The notes beneath the pieces were generated by a model. It ran no database searches. It was not told the origin of the DNA and saw only the letters and a list, made by a program, of their open reading frames with translations. From positions 1 to 64,000 of the IMG/VR virus record IMGVR_UViG_3300035698_017437: a DNA stretch of 64,000 bases; one strand, given 5' to 3'. A program made the position numbers and the translations under genes. This stretch comes from a virus. Of the stretch, positions 3,538 through 31,974 are shown piece by piece (position 1 is the first letter of the stretch; each line of letters opens with the position of its first letter).

Positions 3538-3995
3538 TGTGTGATAAAATGCCAGCTATGAGGGCTATACCTTGGGATTTCAAAGATAAGAATAAACTTC
3601 AACAGATCTGGCATTGGTTAAAAACTCCTAGAAGATATGAGCTTACTGAAGATTGGAAATATATTATTCCTACAGGAGAGAAACTTATAATAAGAAGTGG
3701 TTTTGATTTTGATGGAGCATCTATTCCTAGACCTTTTAGACCTTTTCTTTCTCCAACAGGTTTATTATTAGTAGGCGGTTTAGTTCATGATTTTGGTTAT
3801 AGATATAATAAATATATTCTAGCTGATGGAAGAGATTTTGCTGTAAGAGGAGGAAAATTCTTTGTAGATAATCTTTTTAGGATTATTGTGTATAAAGAAA
3901 CAGGATTCAAAATTCTTGCCAATATTGTTTATTATGCTGTAAGAATTGGTGGCAATAAAGCATGGAAAGGATATAGAGAAAATGATTCCATCTAA
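3537..3995 (+). CDS. DUF1353 family protein
   Basis: GFDFDGASIPR and VHDFGY motifs, C-terminal AVRIGG. Confidence 0.8.
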   Translation: MCDKMPAMRAIPWDFKDKNKLQQIWHWLKTPRRYELTEDWKYIIPTGEKLIIRSGFDFDGASIPRPFRPFLSPTGLLLVGGLVHDFGYRYNKYILADGRDFAVRGGKFFVDNLFRIIVYKETGFKILANIVYYAVRIGGNKAWKGYRENDSI

Positions 3996-4728
3996 TAGAA
4001 GTTCCTTTGCTGAATATTGTTTGAAAGAATTGGGAGCACCAGTTATTCAAATAAACATTGATGAAGACCAAATCGGAGATAGAATTGATGAAGCTATTCA
4101 ACTGTTTCAAGAATATCATTATGATGCTGTACAGCATGATTTCCTATTGAAACAAATCACTCAAACTGATATAGATAATCGATTCCTAGACATACCTAAA
4201 GATATTCTTGGTATCACTAAAGTAATGAAACCTGATAATACATATTCAGGTACATTCATGACTGATACATATCAATGGCAAAAAGATGTTGCCTATGATC
4301 TAGCTTTTAGATCTGTTGGAGATAGTCTAACAAATTATTTTATCACTACTCAATATAACAAAATGGTAAATGATATGTTGGGAAAATCCTCTGAATGGGA
4401 TTATAGCCAACATATGGATAAATTATTCATTCATCAAGAATGGGATGAATTTATAGCTGATTCATATATATTGATAGAAGTTTACAGAACTATAGATCCT
4501 GATCAATATGAAGATGTTTGGAATGATAGATGGCTCAAAAAATATGGAACAGCATTGATTGGTCGCCAATGGGGAGTGAATTTATCCAAATATGAGGGTG
4601 TGAATCTACCAGGAGGAATAACTCTTGATGGAGATAAATTGTATGATCGTTATAATGAGCAAGTAAATGATCTGGAAGAATTGTTAGAATCTAAATATTC
4701 CTTGCCCATAAACTTTATCACAGGTTGA
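3982..4728 (+). CDS. gp13: Neck protein gp13
   Basis: YCL..LGAPVIQINIDEDQ and QWG.NLSKYEGV.LPGG.TLDG motifs; synteny. Confidence 0.93.
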   Translation: MIPSNRSSFAEYCLKELGAPVIQINIDEDQIGDRIDEAIQLFQEYHYDAVQHDFLLKQITQTDIDNRFLDIPKDILGITKVMKPDNTYSGTFMTDTYQWQKDVAYDLAFRSVGDSLTNYFITTQYNKMVNDMLGKSSEWDYSQHMDKLFIHQEWDEFIADSYILIEVYRTIDPDQYEDVWNDRWLKKYGTALIGRQWGVNLSKYEGVNLPGGITLDGDKLYDRYNEQVNDLEELLESKYSLPINFITG

Positions 4729-4731
4729 TGA

Positions 4732-5037
4732 ATGAAAACATATAAACAATTCATCAACGAAGCACCTAGATCTTATAGATATGTTGTCGGATTCACTTTT
4801 GGGCAAAATATGGAACAGAAAGATAGAGTTTTTGCTTTCGTAAAATCTAAAAAATCTAAAAGTAATATTATAAATAAAGCAATAGAATTAACTGTAAATA
4901 TGGCCAGAGGAATCCAATCAGGACAAATAGAAACAAAGGTTTTCAAAGATGAAGATGAAATGGCTGATTATTGGATAGATATCAAGAAATATAAAGATGT
5001 TGTTTTTGATGGAATTAATAGAATGGAACTAATGTAA
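4732..5037 (+). CDS. Putative internal head protein
   Basis: N-terminus MKTYKQFINE matches the T4 internal-protein capsid-targeting sequence. Confidence 0.55.
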   Translation: MKTYKQFINEAPRSYRYVVGFTFGQNMEQKDRVFAFVKSKKSKSNIINKAIELTVNMARGIQSGQIETKVFKDEDEMADYWIDIKKYKDVVFDGINRMELM

Positions 5038-5645
5038 TGACTGTATCTAAATATTTCTCCTCTCACCAAAACACTGATGAATCCGATCTATTGAATGATT
5101 TGACTGTTGAAGTAATAAATCAAAGAGGTTTCGATTTCTCTTATATTCCTAGAGATACTCCAGGAATAGATTACTTATTCGGTGAGGATCCAACATCTGT
5201 TTTTTCTGAAGGTATCCTATTGGAAATGATGATTGATTCTGTTGAAGAATATGGTGGTGATGGTGAGTATATTATGAGATTAGGTCTAGATATAAGAGAT
5301 GAAATAACATTCATATTCGCAAAATCTAGATTTGTTGATGAAGTCACAAAAGCAAATAGTGAAATTCTTAGACCTAGAGAGGGAGATCTTATTGCCTCTC
5401 CTATGACCTCCTCTATATTTGAAATAACTTTTGTTGAACATGAGAAGCCTTTTTACCAATTAGGGATAAATCGTACCTATGAATGTCAATGTAAGAAATT
5501 AGAATATTCTCATGAACCTTTGAATACTGGAATTGAAGAAGTTGATGCCATTGAAGATTTGATCCCTGAAAATGATAAAACAGATATTGAAGCCGAATCT
5601 CCAATAGATTTCTCTGAAGATGATCCTTTTGGCATAAATTATTAA
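5037..5645 (+). CDS. gp14: Neck protein gp14
   Basis: YIPR..D.LFGED, RPREGDLI, FEITFVEHEKPFYQLG motifs. Confidence 0.93.
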   Translation: MTVSKYFSSHQNTDESDLLNDLTVEVINQRGFDFSYIPRDTPGIDYLFGEDPTSVFSEGILLEMMIDSVEEYGGDGEYIMRLGLDIRDEITFIFAKSRFVDEVTKANSEILRPREGDLIASPMTSSIFEITFVEHEKPFYQLGINRTYECQCKKLEYSHEPLNTGIEEVDAIEDLIPENDKTDIEAESPIDFSEDDPFGINY

Positions 5646-5711: not shown

Positions 5712-6497
5712 GTGATATCTGACACACATTTTTTCCATAACTCAACTAGGAAGCTTATTACTGCTTTTGGTACCGTATTCTCAGGTCTTACTATAGAAAG
5801 ATCTGATGGAAATATAATCACTGTTCCTATTATGTATGGTAGTAAAGAAAAATGGTATTATAGACTCAAACAGAACTCTAATTTAGATAAACAACAAGCA
5901 ATAACTTTACCTAGATTGGGATTCTTTATTACAGATTGGCAATATAATGCTGAAAGAAAATTGAATTCCTCAGATAAAATAGTTTCAAAGAATGATGCCG
6001 ATAATCGCTATGTGAAAAAAACATTTCAACCTGTTCCTTATAATTTACCCTTTGAGTTATACCTTTGGGCAAAGAATATGGATGATGGATTACAAATTAT
6101 AGAACAAATATTACCTTTCTTCAAACCAAGCTTCAACATAACAATAACAGAATTAGTTGAACCTGAAATAAAAAGAGATGTTCCAATCACTCTAAACAAT
6201 ATATCCTTTGATGATAATGTTGAGGGTGGAATGGATTCAACAAGAATGCTACAATGGACATTATCTTTTGAAGTTGAAGGAAATTTCTATGGCCCTATTA
6301 GCGACACAGGAATAATTACCGAAGTGTTTGTGGATGTGAATATGGAAAGAGTCCAACCTGATGGAACAATAACAGATGCTACATCTTCTAGAATGAATTT
6401 GAATCCTGATCCTTTGACTGCCCAACCTGATGATCCTTTTGGTCTTGATTATGTGTGGGAGGATAATCCCGAAGGTGAAGCTGTACCAGAAGTATAA
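5712..6497 (+). CDS. gp15: Tail sheath stabiliser gp15
   Basis: AFGT.F, VPI.YG.KEK, LPR, PVPYN, DGLQIIEQILPFF.P motifs. Confidence 0.93.
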   Translation: MISDTHFFHNSTRKLITAFGTVFSGLTIERSDGNIITVPIMYGSKEKWYYRLKQNSNLDKQQAITLPRLGFFITDWQYNAERKLNSSDKIVSKNDADNRYVKKTFQPVPYNLPFELYLWAKNMDDGLQIIEQILPFFKPSFNITITELVEPEIKRDVPITLNNISFDDNVEGGMDSTRMLQWTLSFEVEGNFYGPISDTGIITEVFVDVNMERVQPDGTITDATSSRMNLNPDPLTAQPDDPFGLDYVWEDNPEGEAVPEV

Positions 6498-6500
6498 ATA
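6493..6500 (+). promoter_or_regulatory. T4-type late promoter TATAAATA (also at 9727, 15725, 15866, 19490, 48093)
   Basis: Exact gp55 late consensus upstream of virion genes; gp55 is encoded in the window. Confidence 0.75.
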
Positions 6501-6503
6501 ATA

Positions 6504-6623
6504 ATATGAAGATAAGGACCTCTCTCACCTTTATCTTCCATATAATCAAGAGCGAGCTATCCTCCCTCAATGCTCTTGATGCTAAAGCTCATTTTATCTT
6601 CGGATATCTTGAGCTTTTTCTTT
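6504..6623 (+). ncRNA. Candidate three-hairpin small RNA with CU-rich loops
   Basis: GAAGATAA/TTATCTTC stem (CCTCTCTC loop), ATCAAGAGC/GCTCTTGAT stem (TCCTCCC loop), terminator hairpin; directly after a late promoter. Confidence 0.45.
6584..6623 (+). terminator. Intrinsic terminator with C(UUCG)G loop
   Basis: AAAGCTCA..TATC-TTCG-GATA..TGAGCTTT then T-tract. Confidence 0.75.
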
Positions 6624-6750
6624 AACCTATATAAGCTCACTAGCGACATCTTTAGATCAGTATATACTATCTCTAAATAAATCTCTCCAGCAGTCTCCTA
6701 CAGTTACCTATAGGTATATCTATATGTAATCTCTAGAGAAACCTTAAAGG

Positions 6751-6834
6751 TTTTCTATGTGTAGTTTACCCTTAAATATTTTCTATGTGTAGTTTACCCT
6801 TAAATATTTTCTATGTGTAGTTTACCCTTAAATA
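6751..6834. repeat. 28-bp tandem repeat x3 (iteron-like)
   Basis: TTTTCTATGTGTAGTTTACCCTTAAATA at 6751, 6779, 6807, with degenerate flanking copies. Confidence 0.95.
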
Positions 6835-6882
6835 TTTCCATGAGTATTTCTTGAAGACCTAACTATATCTATATTTAAGGTT

Positions 6883-7130
6883 TATCTTGAATGTATTTTC
6901 TATACATAAACAATTGGATATTTTGAAGAATCAAGAATTGATTCTGATTGTTTCCTGAAGGGAAACTCAATATGTATATTACTGAAAGATTCTTTCGAAT
7001 CTTCTTATCAGAATCCTTTTGGGATTCTTCAATAATCTATTTTTGATATCTTGAATGTATTTTCTATACATAAACAATTGGATATTTTGAAGAATCAAGA
7101 ATTGATTCTGATTGTTTCCTGAAGGGAAAC
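6883..7130. repeat. 84-bp perfect direct repeat x2 containing hairpins
   Basis: Identical copies 6883-6966 and 7047-7130; each has AGAATCAA-GAA-TTGATTCT and GTTTCC-TGAAG-GGAAAC. Confidence 0.95.
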
Positions 7131-7179
7131 ATAATCAATCAAAAACTTAAATGAACCTTTAAGACTTTATTTAAATCTT

Positions 7180-7930
7180 TTACGTGACTACCTTAACAAT
7201 TTTTTGAATTGTAAGTAGACTAGACGTGATTCACCTCTTTGAGAGGAATATTTTTCTTTTTCAGTACTACTCCTAAGGCGAAGTTTATAGGAGTCAATAG
7301 AATTCTGACGAAAAATAATCACTTCTCAAATGTATGCCAATAACAGGTTTAGGGAAGATTAATTCATCCTTTACGGATGCCCGTTGTATTATAGTCTACC
7401 GATTTTATTCCACACCTGTGAAGTTAACACGGTGCTTACGTTTTATCCTGATATCCCAAACCTCAACACATTAAACCGAGGGTTATTTTCCGAATCTTAT
7501 CTTTTTGGTTATAAGTTACATACTTTCTATCAACTTGTGAACAACCAATCGAAATTAGGACAGAGCAGGGCTAGAGTGGGGCCTTTGTTCAACGCCGTTG
7601 TTAGAGCAAAAAGTATGATTGTATCAATACCTTAAGAACCTCTAACGCTCTCACTAGCAAAATAGACTTTTCCAATATAAGAACTTGAAATATGACTTGG
7701 ATGCAAACCTAAGATATTTCAGCGGTTGTAAAATAGAGCCAATATTATTTCTATTGACTCTCCTTGTTCCTCAATTCTACCTCTATAATTTTTGTTCTGT
7801 TAGAATACCGGATATATAGAAAGTATCCTAACGCATAAATTATTGAGAAATTTCAATAAGACATTTCAGTCCGTTTGGAACTACAATACTACTACTACTT
7901 TTCTATCACTATTTAGTCTACCTGTCTAGC
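7180..7930 (+). ncRNA. Candidate large structured ncRNA (~750 nt), family unknown
   Basis: No credible ORF; GC above flanks; many nested hairpins and long-range pairs (7291-7302 with 7749-7760); G-U wobbles favour + strand. Confidence 0.5.
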
Positions 7931-7952
7931 TCTATTTGATTTCTATCTATAT

Positions 7953-7981
7953 ACTATAACATCTTTATATCTATATGTCAA
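7953..7981 (-). promoter_or_regulatory. Sigma70-type promoter firing into the non-coding island
   Basis: Minus strand TTGACA-17 bp-TATAGT with TG extension; no ORF downstream. Confidence 0.75.
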
Positions 7982-8031
7982 GCTTTATTTTATTTTTCTC
8001 TCATTCTTACTTTATTTCTTTCTTGTTTATC

Positions 8032-8265
8032 CTACTCAGCTTTATTCTCTAACGATCCATATAATTTGATAAGATTTTGAGGTCTCTTTTTTCTGAGATA
8101 TAATTCTCTCAACAGTGGACCTTTACATTTTTTACCTTTATTATAAGATCGTCTATAAGATACTTTTCTTATTCTTTGAGATAATTCCTCTATTCCATCT
8201 TGAATGTTATTGAAATATGAGGATACATTGAAACCTTTTATTGCCTCAGAGATCATTTGCTTCAT
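8032..8265 (-). CDS. Hypothetical basic protein
   Basis: ORF preceded by minus-strand TTGACA/TATAAT promoters at 8280-8308 and 8323-8350. Confidence 0.55.
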   Translation of the reverse strand: MKQMISEAIKGFNVSSYFNNIQDGIEELSQRIRKVSYRRSYNKGKKCKGPLLRELYLRKKRPQNLIKLYGSLENKAE

Positions 8266-8346
8266 TGGATATACTCTCTATTATAATATTATTTTTTTCT
8301 TCTGTCAATAACTATTTTTTCTATTATAACACATTTATCATGTTTG

Positions 8347-8544
8347 TCAAGAGTTATTTTCACTATTTTCAATTTTAGTTTCCATGTCAACAATCTCTTC
8401 AATCAAATCTATCTCTTTTGCCATATCTTCTGCTAGAAATAATAAGCCTATATTCAAAACTTCATCTATAGACTTATCTAAAATTTCTGACATTTGTTCT
8501 AAAGCATTATAATCTTCTTTTGTGATTTCAAATTCCTTTAGCAT
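8347..8544 (-). CDS. Ribbon-helix-helix-like small DNA-binding protein
   Basis: FEITKEDYNALEQMSEILDKSIDEVLNIGL pattern (strand-helix-turn-helix); RBS GGAGG. Confidence 0.45.
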   Translation of the reverse strand: MLKEFEITKEDYNALEQMSEILDKSIDEVLNIGLLFLAEDMAKEIDLIEEIVDMETKIENSENNS

Positions 8545-8917
8545 TTTCGTTAGCCTCCACACTGTCCCTAAATTCTTGATTATCTTCTAACTCTTTATCA
8601 TATTTAGTGCCAAGGTATCCTTCAGTTAATTTGAAATCTTGGAATTTATTATTATAATAATATTCATAATCTTCTTTATAATAATTGAAATCCTCTCTCA
8701 ATGGTTCTCCATTTATAGTTTTCAAATCTTTCAAGGTATCAGGAAATAAATTATCATACATATTACCCATATCCGAAAAATCTATATTATCTAAACAATC
8801 TTTACATAAAGACACAAAATATGTTCCCTTCCATACTCCCACATTTAGACTAGATCCCATCAAATGAAATTGTTTGAATTCCGTTGCTTCTTTTGAACAT
8901 AGTTTACATTTACTCAT
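8528..8917 (-). CDS. Zinc-finger hypothetical protein
   Basis: CKLC...CKDC; RBS AGGA. Confidence 0.6.
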   Translation of the reverse strand: MSKCKLCSKEATEFKQFHLMGSSLNVGVWKGTYFVSLCKDCLDNIDFSDMGNMYDNLFPDTLKDLKTINGEPLREDFNYYKEDYEYYYNNKFQDFKLTEGYLGTKYDKELEDNQEFRDSVEANENAKGI

Positions 8918-9146
8918 TTTTTCTTCCTCTACAGTTATGTGTTATTCTACAATATTGGTGTTTATATACTACATATTTCCTATTATTTCTTATAGATAGG
9001 TTACCTTTTTTACTACATATTTGTTCAATAAAGTGTAGTAAAGTGGTGTATTTACTCTTATTTCAAGTTTATTCCAAGTTGTCATGGTTCTTGCTACTAT
9101 AATAGTATAAAGAGAAGTATAATAACAATTCAACAGGAGAAACAAA

Positions 9147-9338
9147 ATGAAAACAATGACACAAATTCAAACAAATGAAAATCTATCTGAAGAAGCGAGT
9201 CATTTTGCTCTAAAAGTAGGAATCACGTTTGCTGTTCTAGTAGGACTTTGGGGAACAGCTTGTTTATTCAGTGGTTTTCTTGCCGCTGGTAGTGTATCCG
9301 CTTTAGCTAAATCTTTGTTTCTCGCAATCTCAATATAA
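9147..9338 (+). CDS. Small membrane protein, Desulfobacterota-like
   Basis: Hydrophobic LVGLWGTACLFSG segment; RBS AGGAG; family resemblance recalled, not searched. Confidence 0.55.
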   Translation: MKTMTQIQTNENLSEEASHFALKVGITFAVLVGLWGTACLFSGFLAAGSVSALAKSLFLAISI

Positions 9339-9348
9339 AGGATATAAT

Positions 9349-9618
9349 ATGAAAAATATAATTTTACTCGCCATCGGATCTATTTTCTGTCTTTGGGCCT
9401 CTTCTGCTATAGTAGCTGGTATTGTTTCTGCTGGAGGTTTTGTTTCCTTTGCCTCAATGTTTATGAGTTCAATAGGTTTGACTACAACATGTTTCACTTT
9501 AGTAGACTTCTATACCTCCATAAAAGGAATAGAATATATCATCTGTGCTATGTTTTTTGTTGCTTTCCCTTTATTCTTCTCTTTTATAAACAAACCTGCC
9601 CTAAAAGTTGTAGCCTAA
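9349..9618 (+). CDS. Small membrane protein with HmcD-like C-terminal segment
   Basis: TLVDFYTSIKGIEYIICAMFFVAFPLFFSFINK resembles small subunits of sulfate-reducer Hmc-type complexes. Confidence 0.5.
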   Translation: MKNIILLAIGSIFCLWASSAIVAGIVSAGGFVSFASMFMSSIGLTTTCFTLVDFYTSIKGIEYIICAMFFVAFPLFFSFINKPALKVVA

Positions 9619-9623
9619 ACCAA

Positions 9624-9662
9624 TAAGGGATCTAAAATATCCTTAAAATTAGATCCCTTATT
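9624..9662. terminator. Inverted-repeat terminator (possibly bidirectional)
   Basis: TAAGGGATCTAA...TTAGATCCCTTA stem. Confidence 0.7.
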
Positions 9663-9767
9663 CATTCCTTATAATAACACATTCCTATTCCTTTGTCAAG
9701 CTTTATTATTCTCATTTCTAATCTTTTATAAATAGTATCAGACACTTAACTATAAGAGAGGAGAAAA

Positions 9768-10151
9768 ATGAAAAATGAACTAATAGAACATGACGGAAAC
9801 CCTTATGTTCCATCAATATATGAGAAAGATGCTGTTGCTGAGGACATAGATGATGCCAGTCAAACATACAAAACCCTTATAGAAAAGGGTGGAGAAGCAT
9901 TAGATATTGCCTTTGATATCCTTGAAGGAACGGAACATCCTAGAGCTGTGGAAACCTTCTCTGGTCTTATGAAAACAATATCAGATGTTACTTCCAAAAT
10001 GGTAGATCTTCAGATAACTAAAAAAGAGTTGGCTGGAGCTGGCGAGTCAAAATCTCCAAATGATGAAAAAACATCAAACACCCAAAACAATTTCTATGTT
10101 GGTACTCCAGCAGAACTCCAAGAATTATTAAGGAATGGCGATAATGAATGA
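9768..10151 (+). CDS. gp16: Terminase small subunit gp16
   Basis: EHPRAVE motif, NNFYVGTPAELQ C-terminus; late promoter upstream; synteny. Confidence 0.9.
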   Translation: MKNELIEHDGNPYVPSIYEKDAVAEDIDDASQTYKTLIEKGGEALDIAFDILEGTEHPRAVETFSGLMKTISDVTSKMVDLQITKKELAGAGESKSPNDEKTSNTQNNFYVGTPAELQELLRNGDNE

Positions 10152-10506
10152 TACAGGATTTAGAGGGAATACGAATCTAAAAAGATCTGGAGTAAAACAA
10201 GAATGGACAAAAAAACAGATCCTTGAATATAAAAAATCAATGAATGATCCGATTTATTTCGTAGAGAAATATATGAAAATTGTCCATATTGATAAAGGCG
10301 TTGTTCCATTCAAAATGTGGGATTTTCAGAAAGAATTGATCCAAACCCTCCATAATAATCGCTTTATTGTAGGCAAGTATCCGAGACAAACTGGTAAGTG
10401 CCTATTGTTTGAAACTGCTATAAATATACGTGATAAGAAGACGAAAGAGGTCAAACGTGTATCAATAGGAGAATTATATGAGAAAGTCAAGGAATGTGAA
10501 ATGTGA
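10135..10506 (+). CDS. gp17: Terminase large subunit N-part + split intein N-fragment (35 aa, 10399-10503)
   Basis: GNTNLKR, DPIYF, PRQTGK Walker A followed by CLLFETAINI (intein block A) then stop. Confidence 0.93.
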   Translation: MAIMNDTGFRGNTNLKRSGVKQEWTKKQILEYKKSMNDPIYFVEKYMKIVHIDKGVVPFKMWDFQKELIQTLHNNRFIVGKYPRQTGKCLLFETAINIRDKKTKEVKRVSIGELYEKVKECEM

Positions 10507-11669
10507 AATTTGTGGAATAGAGATTTCTGTATATAATATAGGAATGCATGTAAAGAAATATCATGATTGGGATCCTAAGGAATATAAACTAAAATATTTC
10601 AAGAAAGAGAAGAAAACTGTATCCTTTTGTGGAACAACTCATAAGAAGGGTATTATCAAGAGATATATTCTTGAATTTGAAAAGGCGTTAGGTAGGAAAT
10701 TATCACTTTCTGAGTTGAAATTTTATCTTATAGTAAGAACATCCAAAGGATGTAATGTTTTGATAATGAGAGATGTAATGGAGAATCCTGAGGTTGAGGT
10801 AAATGAATATGTTGATAGATATTATAGGATAATTACTTTTGAGGGTAATCCTCTTGATCCTCATTCAGGTTATATGAAACTGAGACATGGTAAAGTTTAT
10901 CATAAGAATCATATAAAAAGAATGTCTAAACAGATCAAGGGAGATAAAAATCCAGCATATCAACATGGAGGAAGGTTATCTCCATTTTCAAAAAAGTTTT
11001 TGAAAGGAGATATATCTGAACAAACGAAAGAAAAAGCAATACAGACAAAGAGAAGTAGACCTCACTCACAGAACACAAATATTGAATATTTCCTTCATAA
11101 TAAGACAAATGGTAATTGGGATCTTGCTCAACATCTTCTTTTTGAACGTCAAGCTGTAGGTAGAAAATCAAAATTCATAGAAAGATATGGAGAAGAGGAA
11201 GGCATAAAGAGATGGAAATCAAGACAAGAGAAATGGCAAACTACTCTGAAATCTAAATCTATAGAGGAAATAGCAGAAATAAACATGAAAAAGTGTTCGG
11301 CTGGTTATATTGAATCTAAAAAATGAAAAGGAATTGTTCAAGGAATTAAGGGAGAGATCTTGTAAGGATATCACAAAACAATTGAAAATCCCTTATGATG
11401 GAGTTCGTTATTTTAGTTATGATATTTCATATAAAAATAAATTGATAGAGTATAATGGAGATTTCTGGCATAGTAATCCATTATTATATGAGGAGAATTT
11501 TGTGAATCCTATAAGTAAAAGATCTGCTAAATATATTTGGAAGAATGATGCTAGAAAAAGGGATGTTGCTTTATCTAATGGATATGAGTTGCTTGTTATA
11601 TGGGAGAGTGATTATAATGATAATCCTGAAAAGGAAATACAAAAATGTTTGGAGTTTTTGAATGAATAA
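10478..11669 (+). mobile_element. Free-standing VSR/DUF559-like homing endonuclease between intein halves, frameshifted at the A6 run 11318-11323
   Basis: N-terminal C2H2 finger, ERYGEEEG repeat, C-terminal YD...IEYNGDFWH..D..K...GY..LVIWESD; removing one A joins ORFs 10478 and 11310 (SKNEKELF). Confidence 0.8.
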
Positions 11670-13416
11670 TTTATCAGATTCAATGGAAAGAAAATATATT
11701 GATTCCTTTGAGGTTGATGATTGGGAAATAGAATCAGATTCTGGCTGGATAGATATAAACTCTATATCAAAAACTATTGAATATGAAAAATTTATTATTA
11801 CTACAGAATCGGGCAAATATCTAGAATGTGCTGATGATCATATAATTTTTGATGAAAATATGAATGAGCTTTTTGTGAAAGATTGTGTATCAAATGGAAC
11901 AAAAATCATAACAAAAGATGGTCCTGAATTGGTTATATCTGTATTGAAAACTGATATATCTGAAAATATGTATGATTTATCAGTTCAAGGAGATAATAGA
12001 TTTTATTCTAATGATATTCTTTCTCATAATTCTACTACCGTTGCCGCTTATATTCTACACTATATTATATTCAATTCAGAGAAAACAGTAGCCATTCTTG
12101 CGAATAAAGCCGCAGGTGCTAGAGAGATTTTATCAAGAATTCAAATGGCGTATGAATTATTACCTGATTGGTTATCACATGGAATAAAGGATTGGAACAA
12201 AGGATCTATTATGTTAGAGAATGGATCAAGAGTAATTGCCTCGGCAACTTCTAGTTCTGCTATTCGTGGTATGTCTTTATCTATGATTCTATTAGATGAG
12301 TATGCTTTTGTTCCAAGAAATATCGCTGATGAGTTTATCAGGTCTGTGTATCCTACTATTACATCTGGTAAATATTCTAAAGTTGTAGCCATTTCTACTC
12401 CTTTTGGTATGAATCATTTCTATAAATTATGGGAAGATGCTAAAGCTGGTAGAAATGAATATGTTCCTTGTAAAGCTCATTGGCAAGATGTGCCCGGAAG
12501 AGATGAGAAGTGGAAACAAGAGACAATAAATAATATAGGAGAGGAAGCTTTCGGACAGGAAATGGCTTGCGAGTTCCAGGGCTCCTCGGGATCTTTGATA
12601 AATTCTTATACTTTGAAGAATCTATTTCATAAGATACCAATAAAAAATCAAGATTCTCTTATAATATATGAATTTCCTGAACTAGAAAGACAATATGTGA
12701 CTGTTGTTGATGTTGCCCAAGGTCAAGGATTAGATTATTCTGTAGCTAATGTTATAGATATTACATCTATGCCTTTCCGTCAAGTAGCTATTTTCAGAGA
12801 TAACACTATTGATCCTTTATTTCTTCCTGAAGTTTTATTCAATCTAGGAACTAGATATAACAATTCTTTTGTTTTAGTAGAAAGAAATGATCAAGGAACC
12901 CAAGTGGTTAATGATTTATATGAAGATTTTGAATATGATAATATAATCATGACCTCAATGAATGGGAGAAAAGGACAACAAGTTTCTGGAGGGTTCGGTA
13001 CACAAACAAGTTTAGGAGTGAAAACAACAAAACAAACAAAATCTTTGGGATGTTCAGGACTAAAATCTCTTATGGAACAACAAGAATTGATTGTTGTTGA
13101 TTTCAATACAATAGAGGAATTATCTGTATTTGTTAGAGATAGAACCAGTTATGCCGCAGAAGAAGGATATAATGATGATATTTCCATGACCTTAGTTCTT
13201 TTCTCTTGGTTAGTGAATCAAAAATATTTTAGAGAATCAATGGATCTTGATGCTAGAGCTAAACTAAGTGAAAAATATCATAAACAAATAGAAGAAGAAT
13301 TGTTGCCTTTTGGTTTTTTGAATGATGGATTAGAAGATCAAATTGATGACGAAATTGACCCAGAATTTGGAAATTCTGGAATTCAAATGCCTGGAACCCC
13401 ATTCACAAACTGGTAA
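11662..13416 (+). CDS. gp17: Split intein C-fragment (123 aa, 11662-12030) + terminase large subunit C-part
   Basis: LECADDH block B, MYDLSV, FYSNDILSHN|S splice junction; then LLDEYAF Walker B, STP.GMNHF, VDVA.G.G.DYS nuclease, DDISM. Confidence 0.95.
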   Translation: MNNLSDSMERKYIDSFEVDDWEIESDSGWIDINSISKTIEYEKFIITTESGKYLECADDHIIFDENMNELFVKDCVSNGTKIITKDGPELVISVLKTDISENMYDLSVQGDNRFYSNDILSHNSTTVAAYILHYIIFNSEKTVAILANKAAGAREILSRIQMAYELLPDWLSHGIKDWNKGSIMLENGSRVIASATSSSAIRGMSLSMILLDEYAFVPRNIADEFIRSVYPTITSGKYSKVVAISTPFGMNHFYKLWEDAKAGRNEYVPCKAHWQDVPGRDEKWKQETINNIGEEAFGQEMACEFQGSSGSLINSYTLKNLFHKIPIKNQDSLIIYEFPELERQYVTVVDVAQGQGLDYSVANVIDITSMPFRQVAIFRDNTIDPLFLPEVLFNLGTRYNNSFVLVERNDQGTQVVNDLYEDFEYDNIIMTSMNGRKGQQVSGGFGTQTSLGVKTTKQTKSLGCSGLKSLMEQQELIVVDFNTIEELSVFVRDRTSYAAEEGYNDDISMTLVLFSWLVNQKYFRESMDLDARAKLSEKYHKQIEEELLPFGFLNDGLEDQIDDEIDPEFGNSGIQMPGTPFTNW

Positions 13417-13737: not shown

Positions 13738-15720
13738 ATGCCGCTACATACCCAACTTTCACCTGGAGTTTCCTCTAGGGAGATAGACCTAACGAATATT
13801 GTACCTCAAACAGCGATCACAAATGGAGCTGTTGTTGGAGGATTCACTTGGGGTCCAGTAGATGATATTCAAACAATTAGTTCAGAAAATAAATTAGTAG
13901 ATCAATTTGGTATTCCAACAGACGATGTTTACATGCATTGGTTTGCCGCTAAGAATTTTCTGTCTTACTCAAGAAACCTAAAAGTTGTTCGTGTTGTTGA
14001 TACAACATCTGCTACTCCTGCTCTAAACGCAACAGCTATTGCTGGAGGAGAATTGATCAAAAATGAAACTGAATGGACAGATGATTATTCTTCTGGTAAT
14101 TCTGATGCTTTTGGAGTTTTTGCTGCCAAATATCCTGGCTCTCTAGGTAATGGCGTTGTTATTGAAATGGCAGATTCAGCAACATATACTTCCGTTGATG
14201 AAAGAACAATTGTTATTACTGATGCTGGTTCTGATTATACCTCAGCAGACGATCATGGAACAGTAGTAACCTTTTCAGCCCCTCCAGTGAATGGAGTTCA
14301 AGCTACAGGAACTCTAAATGTTGTTGCTGATATTGTAACTGGAATCACTGTTACAGAAGAAGGTTCAGGATATCTCGTTCCTCCTACTATCACTATTGGA
14401 CTCTCTACTGCTGGAGCATCAACAGCAACAGCAAATTCAGGATTATGGAAATATAGAGACCAATTCTTAACAACTCCTGGAACCTCAGATTATTGTGAAA
14501 GAAAAGGTGGAACAAACGATGAACTTCATATAATTATTATTGATGGATCTGGTTTATTTACCGGAGAAGCTGGTAATATAATGGAACGATTCTCTTTCGT
14601 ATCTAAAGCCTCTGATGCTATGTTTGACGATGGAACAAGAGCTTATTATGTTAATGTTCTAAGAGATAGATCAAAATATGTTTATTGGATGGATCATCCT
14701 TCTGTTGTAGATGCCACTTGGGGAACAACTGCTTCTCTAACTGATTTCGGTTCTCTTCCTCTTATTGAGAAAGCTACCCTTCAAGATGGAGTAAATGGCG
14801 AGTCTGTAACAAATAATGAACTATTCCCTGGTTGGGATATGTTCAGAAATAAAGAAGTAATTGATATTGGCGATGTAATTGTTTCCCCAACCCATCTCCA
14901 ATCAGACCAAGAAGCTAATGTTCTGAAAGATTATGTTATTCAAAATATTGGTGATATCCGAAGAGATTGTGTAGTCTTTATTTCTCCTAATCTTTCCGAT
15001 GTTGTGCATAATGTTGGAAATGAAGCCGAGGATTGTATCACAATGAGAAACGTTCTTACTTCTTCTTCTTATGCTTTCCTTGATTCAAATTGGAAATATC
15101 AATTTGATGTCCATAATGACACTTATAGATGGTTGCCTTGTTGTGCTGATATTGCTGGCATTTCTGCTAGAACCGATACTGATGCCGATCCTTGGTGGAG
15201 TATAGCAGGTTTCAATAGAGGTCACTTGAAAAATGTTGTGAAACTTGCTTGGAATCCTGATCATACCGATAGAGATGAATTATATCAAAATGGTATAAAT
15301 CCAGTGAATACTTTCGCAGGTGAAGGTACCCTACTTTACGGCGATAAAACGATGCTCACCAAACCTAGCGCCTTTGACCGCATTAATGTGCGAAAATTAT
15401 TTATTGTTTTAGAAAAGTCTATTGAGAAAGCTAGTAAATATATGCTATTTGAGTTCAATGATGAAATTACTAGATTGATGTTTGTACAAATGATTGAGCC
15501 TTTTCTCCGTGATGTCCAAGGTAGACGTGGTATCATAGACTTTCAAGTAATTTGTGATGAAACTAATAACACTCCGTATGTTGTGGATTCTAATAATTTT
15601 GTAGGGGATATTTTTATTAAGCCAGCCCGATCAATTAATTATATTTCCTTGAACTTTATCGCTACAGGAACTGGAATTGAGTTTACGATTGCTCAGGATA
15701 TGGTAAACAATACCTTGTAA
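13738..15720 (+). CDS. gp18: Tail sheath protein gp18
   Basis: LSPGV..REIDLT, F.WGPV, AKYPG.LGN, PWWS.AG.NRG, FDRINVR.LF, IKPARSINYI.LNF. Confidence 0.97.
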   Translation: MPLHTQLSPGVSSREIDLTNIVPQTAITNGAVVGGFTWGPVDDIQTISSENKLVDQFGIPTDDVYMHWFAAKNFLSYSRNLKVVRVVDTTSATPALNATAIAGGELIKNETEWTDDYSSGNSDAFGVFAAKYPGSLGNGVVIEMADSATYTSVDERTIVITDAGSDYTSADDHGTVVTFSAPPVNGVQATGTLNVVADIVTGITVTEEGSGYLVPPTITIGLSTAGASTATANSGLWKYRDQFLTTPGTSDYCERKGGTNDELHIIIIDGSGLFTGEAGNIMERFSFVSKASDAMFDDGTRAYYVNVLRDRSKYVYWMDHPSVVDATWGTTASLTDFGSLPLIEKATLQDGVNGESVTNNELFPGWDMFRNKEVIDIGDVIVSPTHLQSDQEANVLKDYVIQNIGDIRRDCVVFISPNLSDVVHNVGNEAEDCITMRNVLTSSSYAFLDSNWKYQFDVHNDTYRWLPCCADIAGISARTDTDADPWWSIAGFNRGHLKNVVKLAWNPDHTDRDELYQNGINPVNTFAGEGTLLYGDKTMLTKPSAFDRINVRKLFIVLEKSIEKASKYMLFEFNDEITRLMFVQMIEPFLRDVQGRRGIIDFQVICDETNNTPYVVDSNNFVGDIFIKPARSINYISLNFIATGTGIEFTIAQDMVNNTL

Positions 15721-31896: not shown

Positions 31897-31974
31897 TTGA
31901 CTTCTCATTCTATACATGTTATAATAGTGTATAGCAAATGAGAAATATCTAATTCAAAATGGAGATTCAAAATG
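31897..31974 (+). promoter_or_regulatory. PeSL-like cassette copy 2
   Basis: TTGACTTCTCATTCTATACATGTTATAATAGTGTATAGCAAATGAGAA...GGAG..ATG. Confidence 0.9.

Follow-up and report, generated by a model that had tools for sequence, protein, structure and literature searches.

Between the genes for the tail sheath stabilizer gp15 and the small terminase gp16, the IMG/VR virus record IMGVR_UViG_3300035698_017437 contains a non-coding region at about 6500-8031, the largest of this phage. Coordinates refer to the window, i.e. the 64,000 nt of DNA analysed here, which are the first 64 kb of the 141,960-bp record; we classify the source virus as a distant T4-like phage of ~142 kb. The unique part of the region (7180-7981) had been proposed, in an earlier reading of the letters without database searches (the sequence-only reading), to encode an ornate plus-strand RNA of about 750 nt facing an antisense promoter. 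We found that the region is free of coding sequence, that an early-type promoter on the minus strand points across it towards two sets of direct repeats, that the locus belongs to a lineage-specific insert and that only the minus strand folds better than shuffled sequences. Our favoured interpretation, to which we assign a probability of roughly 0.35, is that a cis-acting origin or control region similar to oriE of phage T4 may have 7136-7945 as its non-coding, transcribed arm. In particular, host RNA polymerase would initiate at the early promoter (7981-7953), and an untranslated minus-strand RNA would extend 0.2-0.8 kb toward and into the 89-bp repeats and the 28-bp iterons (7135-6752). This RNA would act in cis with the repeat block, either by priming or opening a replication origin or as a regulatory leader. 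It would carry a moderate fold of its own, with a closed multi-hairpin domain (7930-7336) followed by a hairpin (7322-7226).

Stop codons, start codons, periodicity and family scans all show that 7136-8031 holds no credible open reading frame (ORF), in agreement with the sequence-only reading. Each of the six frames is interrupted by 14-32 stops of all three kinds. Across 6498-8031 the start codons that have a Shine-Dalgarno motif open fewer than 15 codons, the exception being a TTG-initiated frame of 53 codons (6549-6388), most of which overlaps gp15 in antisense orientation. The period-3 power of 7136-8031 was 0.1, compared to 4-44 for most neighbouring genes (0.8 for an adjacent ORF of 77 amino acids (aa)). 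Stop-to-stop frames compared with Pfam and PHROG provided no match with E below 0.06, and a tblastn comparison of the stretch with every ORF of this genome and of the loci of relatives stayed at noise level. The longest open frame (7363-7632, plus strand, 90 codons) starts with TTG, has no ribosome-binding site and no homologue and, in contrast to the real neighbours, is absent from the called proteins of the collection. A protein gene or pseudogene was rejected, since no open frame, periodicity or homology remnant is present in 7136-8031. Stop-codon recoding was rejected as well: TAA, TAG and TGA occur in every frame, and the 13 tRNAs include no suppressor. When ORFs of 50-60 aa and tRNAs were masked, the stretches left uncovered within 6571-8031 were the longest of the record by a wide margin; only ~7% of the record is free of ORFs of at least 60 aa and of tRNAs. 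The GC content at 7200-7800 is 0.36-0.37, compared to 0.33 for the genome and 0.26-0.30 for the flanks.

The sequence-only reading had also noticed a near-consensus minus-strand promoter that points into the element with no ORF behind it, and both observations hold. The site (TTGACA-17-TATAGT, 7981-7953) belongs to a promoter class of this phage: scanning the record for TTGACA-16/18-TATAAT provided 48 sites with agreement in 11 or 12 of the 12 positions. The majority are plus-strand sites that precede an ORF by 19-135 nt (in most of these cases by about 25-45 nt), and three stand before tRNA clusters. The aligned sites define an extended consensus TTGACw-N11-ATGTTATAAT with A-rich upstream tracts. 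Since 7981-7953 fits this consensus, it is very probably a genuine early promoter; we assign it to the early type because its -35 element is TTGACA. It is the one such site that clearly lacks both an ORF and tRNAs downstream; at the sites 114020 and 131082 the first called ORF is further away than usual (1518 and 419 nt, respectively). As the first ATGs downstream of 7981-7953 open only two or three codons and neither ORF nor tRNA follows, any product would be an untranslated minus-strand RNA. Candidate 3' ends for it are a hairpin at 7761-7728, which would yield an RNA of ~215 nt, a weak terminator-like site at 7379-7365 and T-tailed hairpins in the repeats. Promoter-like sites number 22, no more than the 19.6 ± 4.7 expected from shuffles. 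On the plus strand no promoter scored above 9 of 12 positions, the best being found at 7858-7887.

Following the minus strand from the 7981 promoter, the unique stretch leads into the 89-bp repeats (7135-6883), then the 28-bp repeats (6837-6752) and finally the back of the gp15 terminator. In 200-nt windows the 89-bp repeat block has folding z values of -4 to -4.8 on both strands. Because both strands score, we attribute this signal to palindromes at the DNA level. A Logan contig from one salt-lake run joins 6882 to 7047 and thus contains a single copy of the 164-bp unit, either as a natural variant or by assembly collapse. An A+T-rich motif of 13-15 nt (TATATCTATATGT) stands on both sides of the 28-bp array (6715-6729 and 6864-6878) and occurs again at 7966-7980, within the -35/spacer of the 7981 promoter. 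The three copies could bind the same protein; the composition of the motif makes a chance match not unlikely.

In the 47 relatives that have both genes, gp15 and gp16 are directly adjacent, and none of these relatives has counterparts of the small ORFs that separate the two genes here. The 3.27 kb between them (6498-9767) are therefore a lineage-specific insert. The insert locus is one of only two blocks of negative GC skew with minus-strand genes in the record, the genes at 8032-8917 being placed amid plus-strand genes. The only other block (record 120000-124000) contains a minus-strand consensus promoter at 122053 that precedes an 804-aa ORF. Upstream of the 7981 promoter lie three orphan early genes (129, 71 and 77 aa) under perfect-consensus promoters. 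The 77-aa protein had no relatives among 1.84 billion representative proteins, and the 129-aa protein was likewise an orphan in searches of billions of protein sequences. AlphaFold single-sequence models of the 71- and 77-aa proteins are all-helical, with a predicted local distance difference test score (pLDDT) of 88 and 70, and as models speak neither for nor against a DNA-binding fold. Further into the insert, a second minus-strand consensus early promoter (9671-9699) is antisense to two small plus-strand ORFs (9147-9618) and lies ~750 nt from the 129-aa gene. The strong hairpin formed by the bases transcribed first from this promoter also terminates the 9147-9618 ORFs on the plus strand.

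Parts of the stretch were present in 13 salt-lake or marine DNA sequencing runs, with no RNA runs among the listed holders. Logan contigs from four salt-lake runs tile the region with zero differences and no variants. The region is thus no assembly artefact; being identical to the window, these contigs carry no comparative information.

Folding energies were compared with those of dinucleotide shuffles. In a first run the minus strand gave z = -2.39. Further runs gave -3.17 for the 802 nt (0 of 40 shuffles) and -2.69 for 7330-7945 (0 of 60 shuffles). The minus-strand ensemble is well defined: its diversity was 92 compared to 160 ± 35 in shuffles (z = -1.9), and the centroid is close to the minimum free energy (MFE) structure. 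As genome background, both strands of 17 other 616-nt windows were folded. The resulting 34 z values had a mean of about -0.5, with -2.66, -2.55 and -2.36 as the three lowest, such that the value of -2.69 lies below all of them. The minus-strand signal is thus strand-specific, weak and suggestive. The predicted fold is a closed domain (7930-7336) with about ten hairpins inside, followed by the 7322-7226 hairpin. Two predicted helices close the domain, 7930-7920/7348-7336 and 7889-7879/7396-7386, with pair probabilities of 0.91-0.97. Its sub-domains have z values of -1.3 to -2.5, and 7728-7945 reaches -2.09. The plus strand of 7215-7330 had z = -1.55 and its minus strand z = -3.18 (1 of 300 shuffles). 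For pairing in trans, the longest antisense matches elsewhere in the genome were A+T-rich 14-17-mers of the chance type.

The sequence-only reading had based its RNA on a set of complementary segments, all of which are found where it had placed them. GTGAT/TATTTTTC pairs with GAAAAATA/ATCAC around ACTCCTA/TAGGAGT (7226-7322), a perfect 12-bp pair links 7291-7302 with 7749-7760, GTAGACTA at 7215 has its complement at 7392 and 7914, a hairpin is present at 7563-7590, and GTTAGAG/CTCTAAC as well as TGAAATAT/ATATTTCA are complementary. In 1000 dinucleotide shuffles, a perfect 12-bp inverted repeat had P = 0.045, the 17 inverted repeats of 8 bp compared to 9.5 ± 4 expected (P = 0.058), and an 8-mer occurring three times had P of about 0.05. 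The dense base pairing claimed for the plus strand was not borne out: its energy is no better than that of the shuffles (z = -0.33; in a separate run -0.60 for the 802 nt and +0.45 for 7330-7945), its centroid (-78 kcal/mol) is far from the MFE (-158 kcal/mol), and its ensemble diversity exceeds the shuffle mean, i.e. the ensemble is more diffuse. Among 200-nt windows 6900-7400 alone stands out, due to the palindromes of the 89-bp repeats (both strands) and the 7226-7322 hairpin; windows across 7300-8000 have z values from -0.1 to -1.65. G-U wobbles had been taken to favour the plus strand. This argument points the wrong way, since the minus strand folds better in all three determinations. An excess of folding energy over shuffles, which the sequence-only reading had named as a check, is thus lacking on the plus strand, while the minus strand marginally exceeds both shuffles and background.

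A scan against Rfam, also suggested there, likewise provided no family. At the gathering score Rfam 15, which includes GOLLD, ROOL, HEARO, OLE, raiA, group I/II introns, tmRNA and RNase P, had no match in the 64-kb window. With lax filters and E<=10 none was obtained inside 7180-7981, the three chance-level matches being all elsewhere. A GOLLD/ROOL-like plus-strand RNA is therefore unsupported: the strand folds like shuffles and matches no family. Related DNA was not found either. Blastn with word size 11 of 6600-8100 against 50,697 GenBank phages was empty, and with word size 7 of 6500-9767 against 80 IMG/VR loci of relatives of the large terminase (TerL) it returned only chance matches of 18-45 nt. 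A 22-mer probe of IMG/VR and a 20-mer probe of JGI metagenomes gave no match. A 20-mer probe of GTDB genomes matched once, in a Verrucomicrobia metagenome-assembled genome of 61% GC. We regard this match as chance because about one random match is expected in 596 Gb and it does not extend past 20 nt.

T4 oriE contains iterons, relies on a promoter of the early mode and is positioned at a switch of the transcription strand (Kreuzer & Brister 2010, PMC3016281; Vaiskunaite et al. 1999, as cited in PMC3016281). Transcripts from the early promoter are thought to prime or open this origin. The locus described here shares with oriE the T4-type phage context, evenly spaced direct repeats (the 28-bp set at 6752-6837 and the 89-bp set at 6883-7135), an early sigma-70 type promoter rather than a middle promoter, adjoining small early genes of unknown fold and a switch of strand and nucleotide skew, here at one of the two negative-GC-skew blocks. 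The promoter at 7981-7953 faces the repeats, such that its predicted transcript would enter the candidate origin. Because iterons, an early promoter directed towards them, small early genes and the strand/skew switch match oriE, we take a cis-acting origin or control region to be the most likely reading. It differs from oriE in the repeats (three of 28 bp and two of 89 bp, while oriE iterons have 12 nt), in its position between gp15 and gp16, in lacking sequence similarity, in the ~810 nt of unique non-coding DNA between promoter and repeats and in that its origin activity is a prediction.

Several points weigh against an origin or control region. The ~810 nt between promoter and repeats are one of them, all the more as minimal T4 oriF and oriG span ~100 bp and their unwinding element follows directly on the promoter (PMC3016281). 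The transcript, its end point and its possible role in origin priming are predictions from sequence. No strong intrinsic terminator bounds the presumed RNA on the minus strand, and the z value of -2.69 is separated from the next background value of -2.66 by a tiny margin. Searches of GenBank phages, IMG/VR and JGI revealed no relative carrying the region, which precludes evidence from conservation or covariation. No initiator protein was recognised, the small neighbours being orphans with uninformative helical models. Finally, even for T4 no role of the iterons at oriE has been proven (PMC3016281).

Other known systems resemble the locus in part. In T4 oriF and oriG an RNA driven from a promoter stays hybridised in A+T-rich DNA as an R-loop and primes the leading strand (PMC3016281). 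Here, too, a predicted promoter-driven transcript enters A+T-rich DNA, where an RNA-DNA hybrid could persist and prime the leading strand. These origins, however, use a MotA-dependent middle promoter with the unwinding element immediately downstream, whereas our promoter is of the early type and the block of lowest GC (0.26) is at least 810 nt downstream. The switchable primer/antisense RNA pair that the sequence-only reading had considered for control of the adjacent repeats is modelled on RNA II/RNA I of ColE1. As proposed here, an untranslated folded pre-primer of several hundred nt would likewise be transcribed toward an origin. A primer or antisense RNA acting on the repeats is plausible on the minus strand, given that the 7981 promoter fits the early consensus of the phage, has neither an identified ORF nor tRNAs behind it and is directed at the repeat block; a convincing antisense promoter directed at the 5' part of the RNA, as in ColE1, was not found (the best site, 7858-7887 on the plus strand, agrees at 9 of 12 positions). 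The locus also differs from ColE1 in belonging to a phage rather than a plasmid and in showing no sequence or Rfam similarity. With GOLLD (RF01998) and ROOL (RF03087) it shares the size (0.5-0.8 kb), the occurrence in phages or prophages and the lack of an ORF. It differs from them in matching no covariance model at E<=10 and in having no conserved structure that would define a family; the marginal folding excess is, moreover, on the strand opposite to the one proposed.

Of the aligned promoter sites of this phage, ~25 are near-identical early cassettes. Each has TTGACT as its -35 element and an inverted repeat across the promoter, together with a conserved leader and a Shine-Dalgarno motif. 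They are found on the plus strand at 31897, 43946, 44549, 56245, 58068 and 61792 of the window and at 65822-116181 of the record. Their ORFs begin about 39 nt past the -10 element, and the 29-nt cassette core had no exact match in IMG/VR. The cassettes resemble the promoter-early stem-loop (PeSL) cassettes of T4-like phages, which mediate indels (PMC2839356, PMC4122927), and the insert is a hyperplastic region of the kind shuffled by such cassettes. Unlike PeSL elements, neither the 7981 promoter nor the repeats copy the cassette. The idea that the repeats are decayed cassettes (a "promoter graveyard") was rejected, as local alignments were not significant: P was 0.52 for the 7981 promoter region and above 0.9 for the iterons, and the P of 0.04 for the 89-bp repeat concerned a different part only. 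A second promoter subclass (TTGACAAGTGAT...AATATGTTATAAT), located at 79511, 81498 and 81639 of the record, stands ahead of the tRNA clusters. ARAGORN located 13 tRNAs at 78.2-86.8 kb of the record and none in the window.

Alternatively, the stretch could be a functionless spacer, either cargo from modular shuffling or a gene decayed beyond recognition, whose orphaned promoter would yield at most a short-lived read-through RNA. This would be in line with an insert that is lineage-specific over its whole length and mosaic, with modules in both orientations, with the wealth of portable PeSL-kind promoter cassettes in this phage, and with a plastic neighbourhood in which one Logan contig has a single-copy 164-bp unit. 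The folding excess is marginal relative to the genome background, and each pairing listed by the sequence-only reading reaches only P of about 0.05. In a record with so little ORF-free DNA, however, 0.9-1.5 kb of idle DNA would be exceptional. A former gene has left no trace in period-3, family matches or tblastn, an intact promoter is in place, extended -10 element and A-rich upstream tract included, and the repeats have no significant likeness to the promoter cassette. We consider a spacer a genuine possibility, if a somewhat improbable one. The z values of -3.17 and -2.69, beneath all 34 background values, could instead reflect a structured non-coding RNA that would be new and autonomous, cover ~0.6-0.75 kb of the minus strand (7945 to ~7230), be expressed early, act in trans or within a ribonucleoprotein and belong to no described family. 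It would have a well-defined ensemble (centroid near the MFE, diversity z = -1.9), two long-range closing helices with pair probabilities above 0.9, a GC content above that of genome and flanks, and a strong promoter of its own, from the class by which the tRNA clusters of this phage are driven as well. Set against this are the small distance to the background (-2.69 vs -2.66), z values of only -0.1 to -1.65 in the 200-nt windows of 7300-8000 and of -1.3 to -2.5 for sub-domains, the missing Rfam match, the absence of a homologue in any search and hence of covarying pairs, and the lack of a clear 3' end, so that we regard such an RNA as unlikely. That the minus strand from 7945 to ~7230 would constitute a new family of large early RNA (0.6-0.75 kb), closed by the two helices predicted above and perhaps also acting as a pre-primer that controls firing of the iteron origin, appears distinctly unlikely.

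Phage T4 makes early 'anti-late' RNA. By analogy, a minus-strand RNA without a relevant fold could read via the repeats into gp15 and be antisense to the late unit, damping premature late expression or colliding with plus-strand read-through. The 7981 promoter indeed converges on the gp13-gp15 unit, the gp15 terminator is active on the plus strand only, and the second early promoter (9699-9671) likewise runs antisense through two small plus-strand ORFs. Such an RNA would have to cover ~1.45 kb from the promoter to gp15 and pass several T-tailed minus-strand hairpins in the repeat block. Long untranslated RNA is, in addition, subject to Rho-dependent termination in most hosts, to which a transcript of this length would be open. 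No sequence feature demands this explanation, and we consider it quite improbable. Least credible, and in our view very improbable, is the plus-strand ornate RNA of ~750 nt with the minus-strand promoter yielding its antisense partner. Every complementary segment listed for it exists and the 7226-7322 hairpin forms on the plus strand too, but with z values of -0.33, -0.60 and +0.45 it does not show the energy excess without which, together with covariation and a transcript, the sequence-only reading itself would have counted as refuted. The centroid of -78 vs an MFE of -158 kcal/mol, the ensemble diversity above the shuffle mean and the missing Rfam match also count against it. Plus-strand promoters score at most 9 of 12 positions, and the terminator-like element at 7234-7256 would halt plus-strand transcripts entering from the left. 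An oriE-like origin or control region remains the interpretation that we prefer.

The features of the locus are collected in Table 1. The T4 late-gene order of the window was recognised from PHROG matches; the record has a GC content of 32.7% and an estimated completeness of 78%. Its nearest relatives by TerL are cyanophages, the Methylophilales phage Melnitz and IMG/VR contigs, with 44-53% identity. For gp15 the best identity among 5.8 billion proteins searched was about 50-55%, and a gp15 query recovered no IMG/VR locus.

Table 1. Positions of features in and around the gp15-gp16 insert (window coordinates).
Feature	Position	Strand	Remarks
Head-tail adaptor	3946-4728		PHROG match
Head closure protein	5037-5645		PHROG match
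Tail sheath stabilizer gp15	5712-6497		PHROG match
Intrinsic terminator closing the gp13-gp15 late unit	6584-6625	plus only	-8 kcal/mol hairpin, then TTTTTCTT
Three tandem 28-bp direct repeats, iteron-like	6752-6837		genome-unique; 20-mer core only at 6752, 6780, 6808
Two 89-bp direct repeats with palindromes	6883-7135		98% identical, 164-bp period; most A+T-rich part of the spacer, GC 0.26
Unique ORF-free stretch, presumed untranslated early transcript	7136-7945	minus	non-coding tests, better folding on minus strand only, composition
Nested imperfect 97-nt hairpin	7226-7322	both	only local structure within 7180-7981 that beats shuffles
Short GC-containing hairpin with T-rich tail	7234-7256	plus	resembles a back-up terminator for plus-strand read-through
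Predicted 3' arms of the two closing helices	7336-7396	minus	partners 7920-7930, 7879-7889
10-bp hairpin (pair probability 0.99), then UAUUUUAC	7728-7761	minus	possible weak terminator, RNA ~215 nt
Predicted 5' arms of the closing helices	7879-7930	minus	begin ~15 nt past presumed transcription start
Local copy of GTAGACTA	7914-7921	minus	other copies 7215 (plus), 7392 (minus); four in the 142-kb record
Early sigma-70 type promoter (very probable)	7953-7981	minus	11 of 12 positions; TG before -10; A-rich upstream tract
77-aa orphan early gene	8032-8265	minus	ends 51 nt upstream of the 7981-7953 promoter
Two perfect-consensus early promoters (sites 8308, 8350)	8280-8350	minus	drive the 77-aa gene, an ORF overlooked by the automatic ORF rule
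Small terminase gp16	9768-10151		PHROG match
Large terminase gp17	11662-13416		PHROG match
Tail sheath gp18	13738-15720		PHROG match

Downstream of the insert, a 123-aa ORF (10135-10506) corresponds to the N-terminal part of the TerL proteins from all 80 related loci, and a 584-aa ORF (11662-13416) carries the rest. Because the two ORFs match separate parts of TerL, the terminase gene is split, with an unrelated 282-aa ORF in between.

The practical outcome of this analysis is a correction: a plus-strand ornate RNA is unsupported, and any RNA made here would be on the minus strand. Were the folded minus-strand RNA real, it would add a phage-borne large non-coding RNA without a known family. 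If the preferred reading is true, an oriE-type origin or control region would exist in a T4-like lineage very far from T4. With the interplay of iterons and early transcripts at oriE unresolved even in T4, such a second independent example would be useful.

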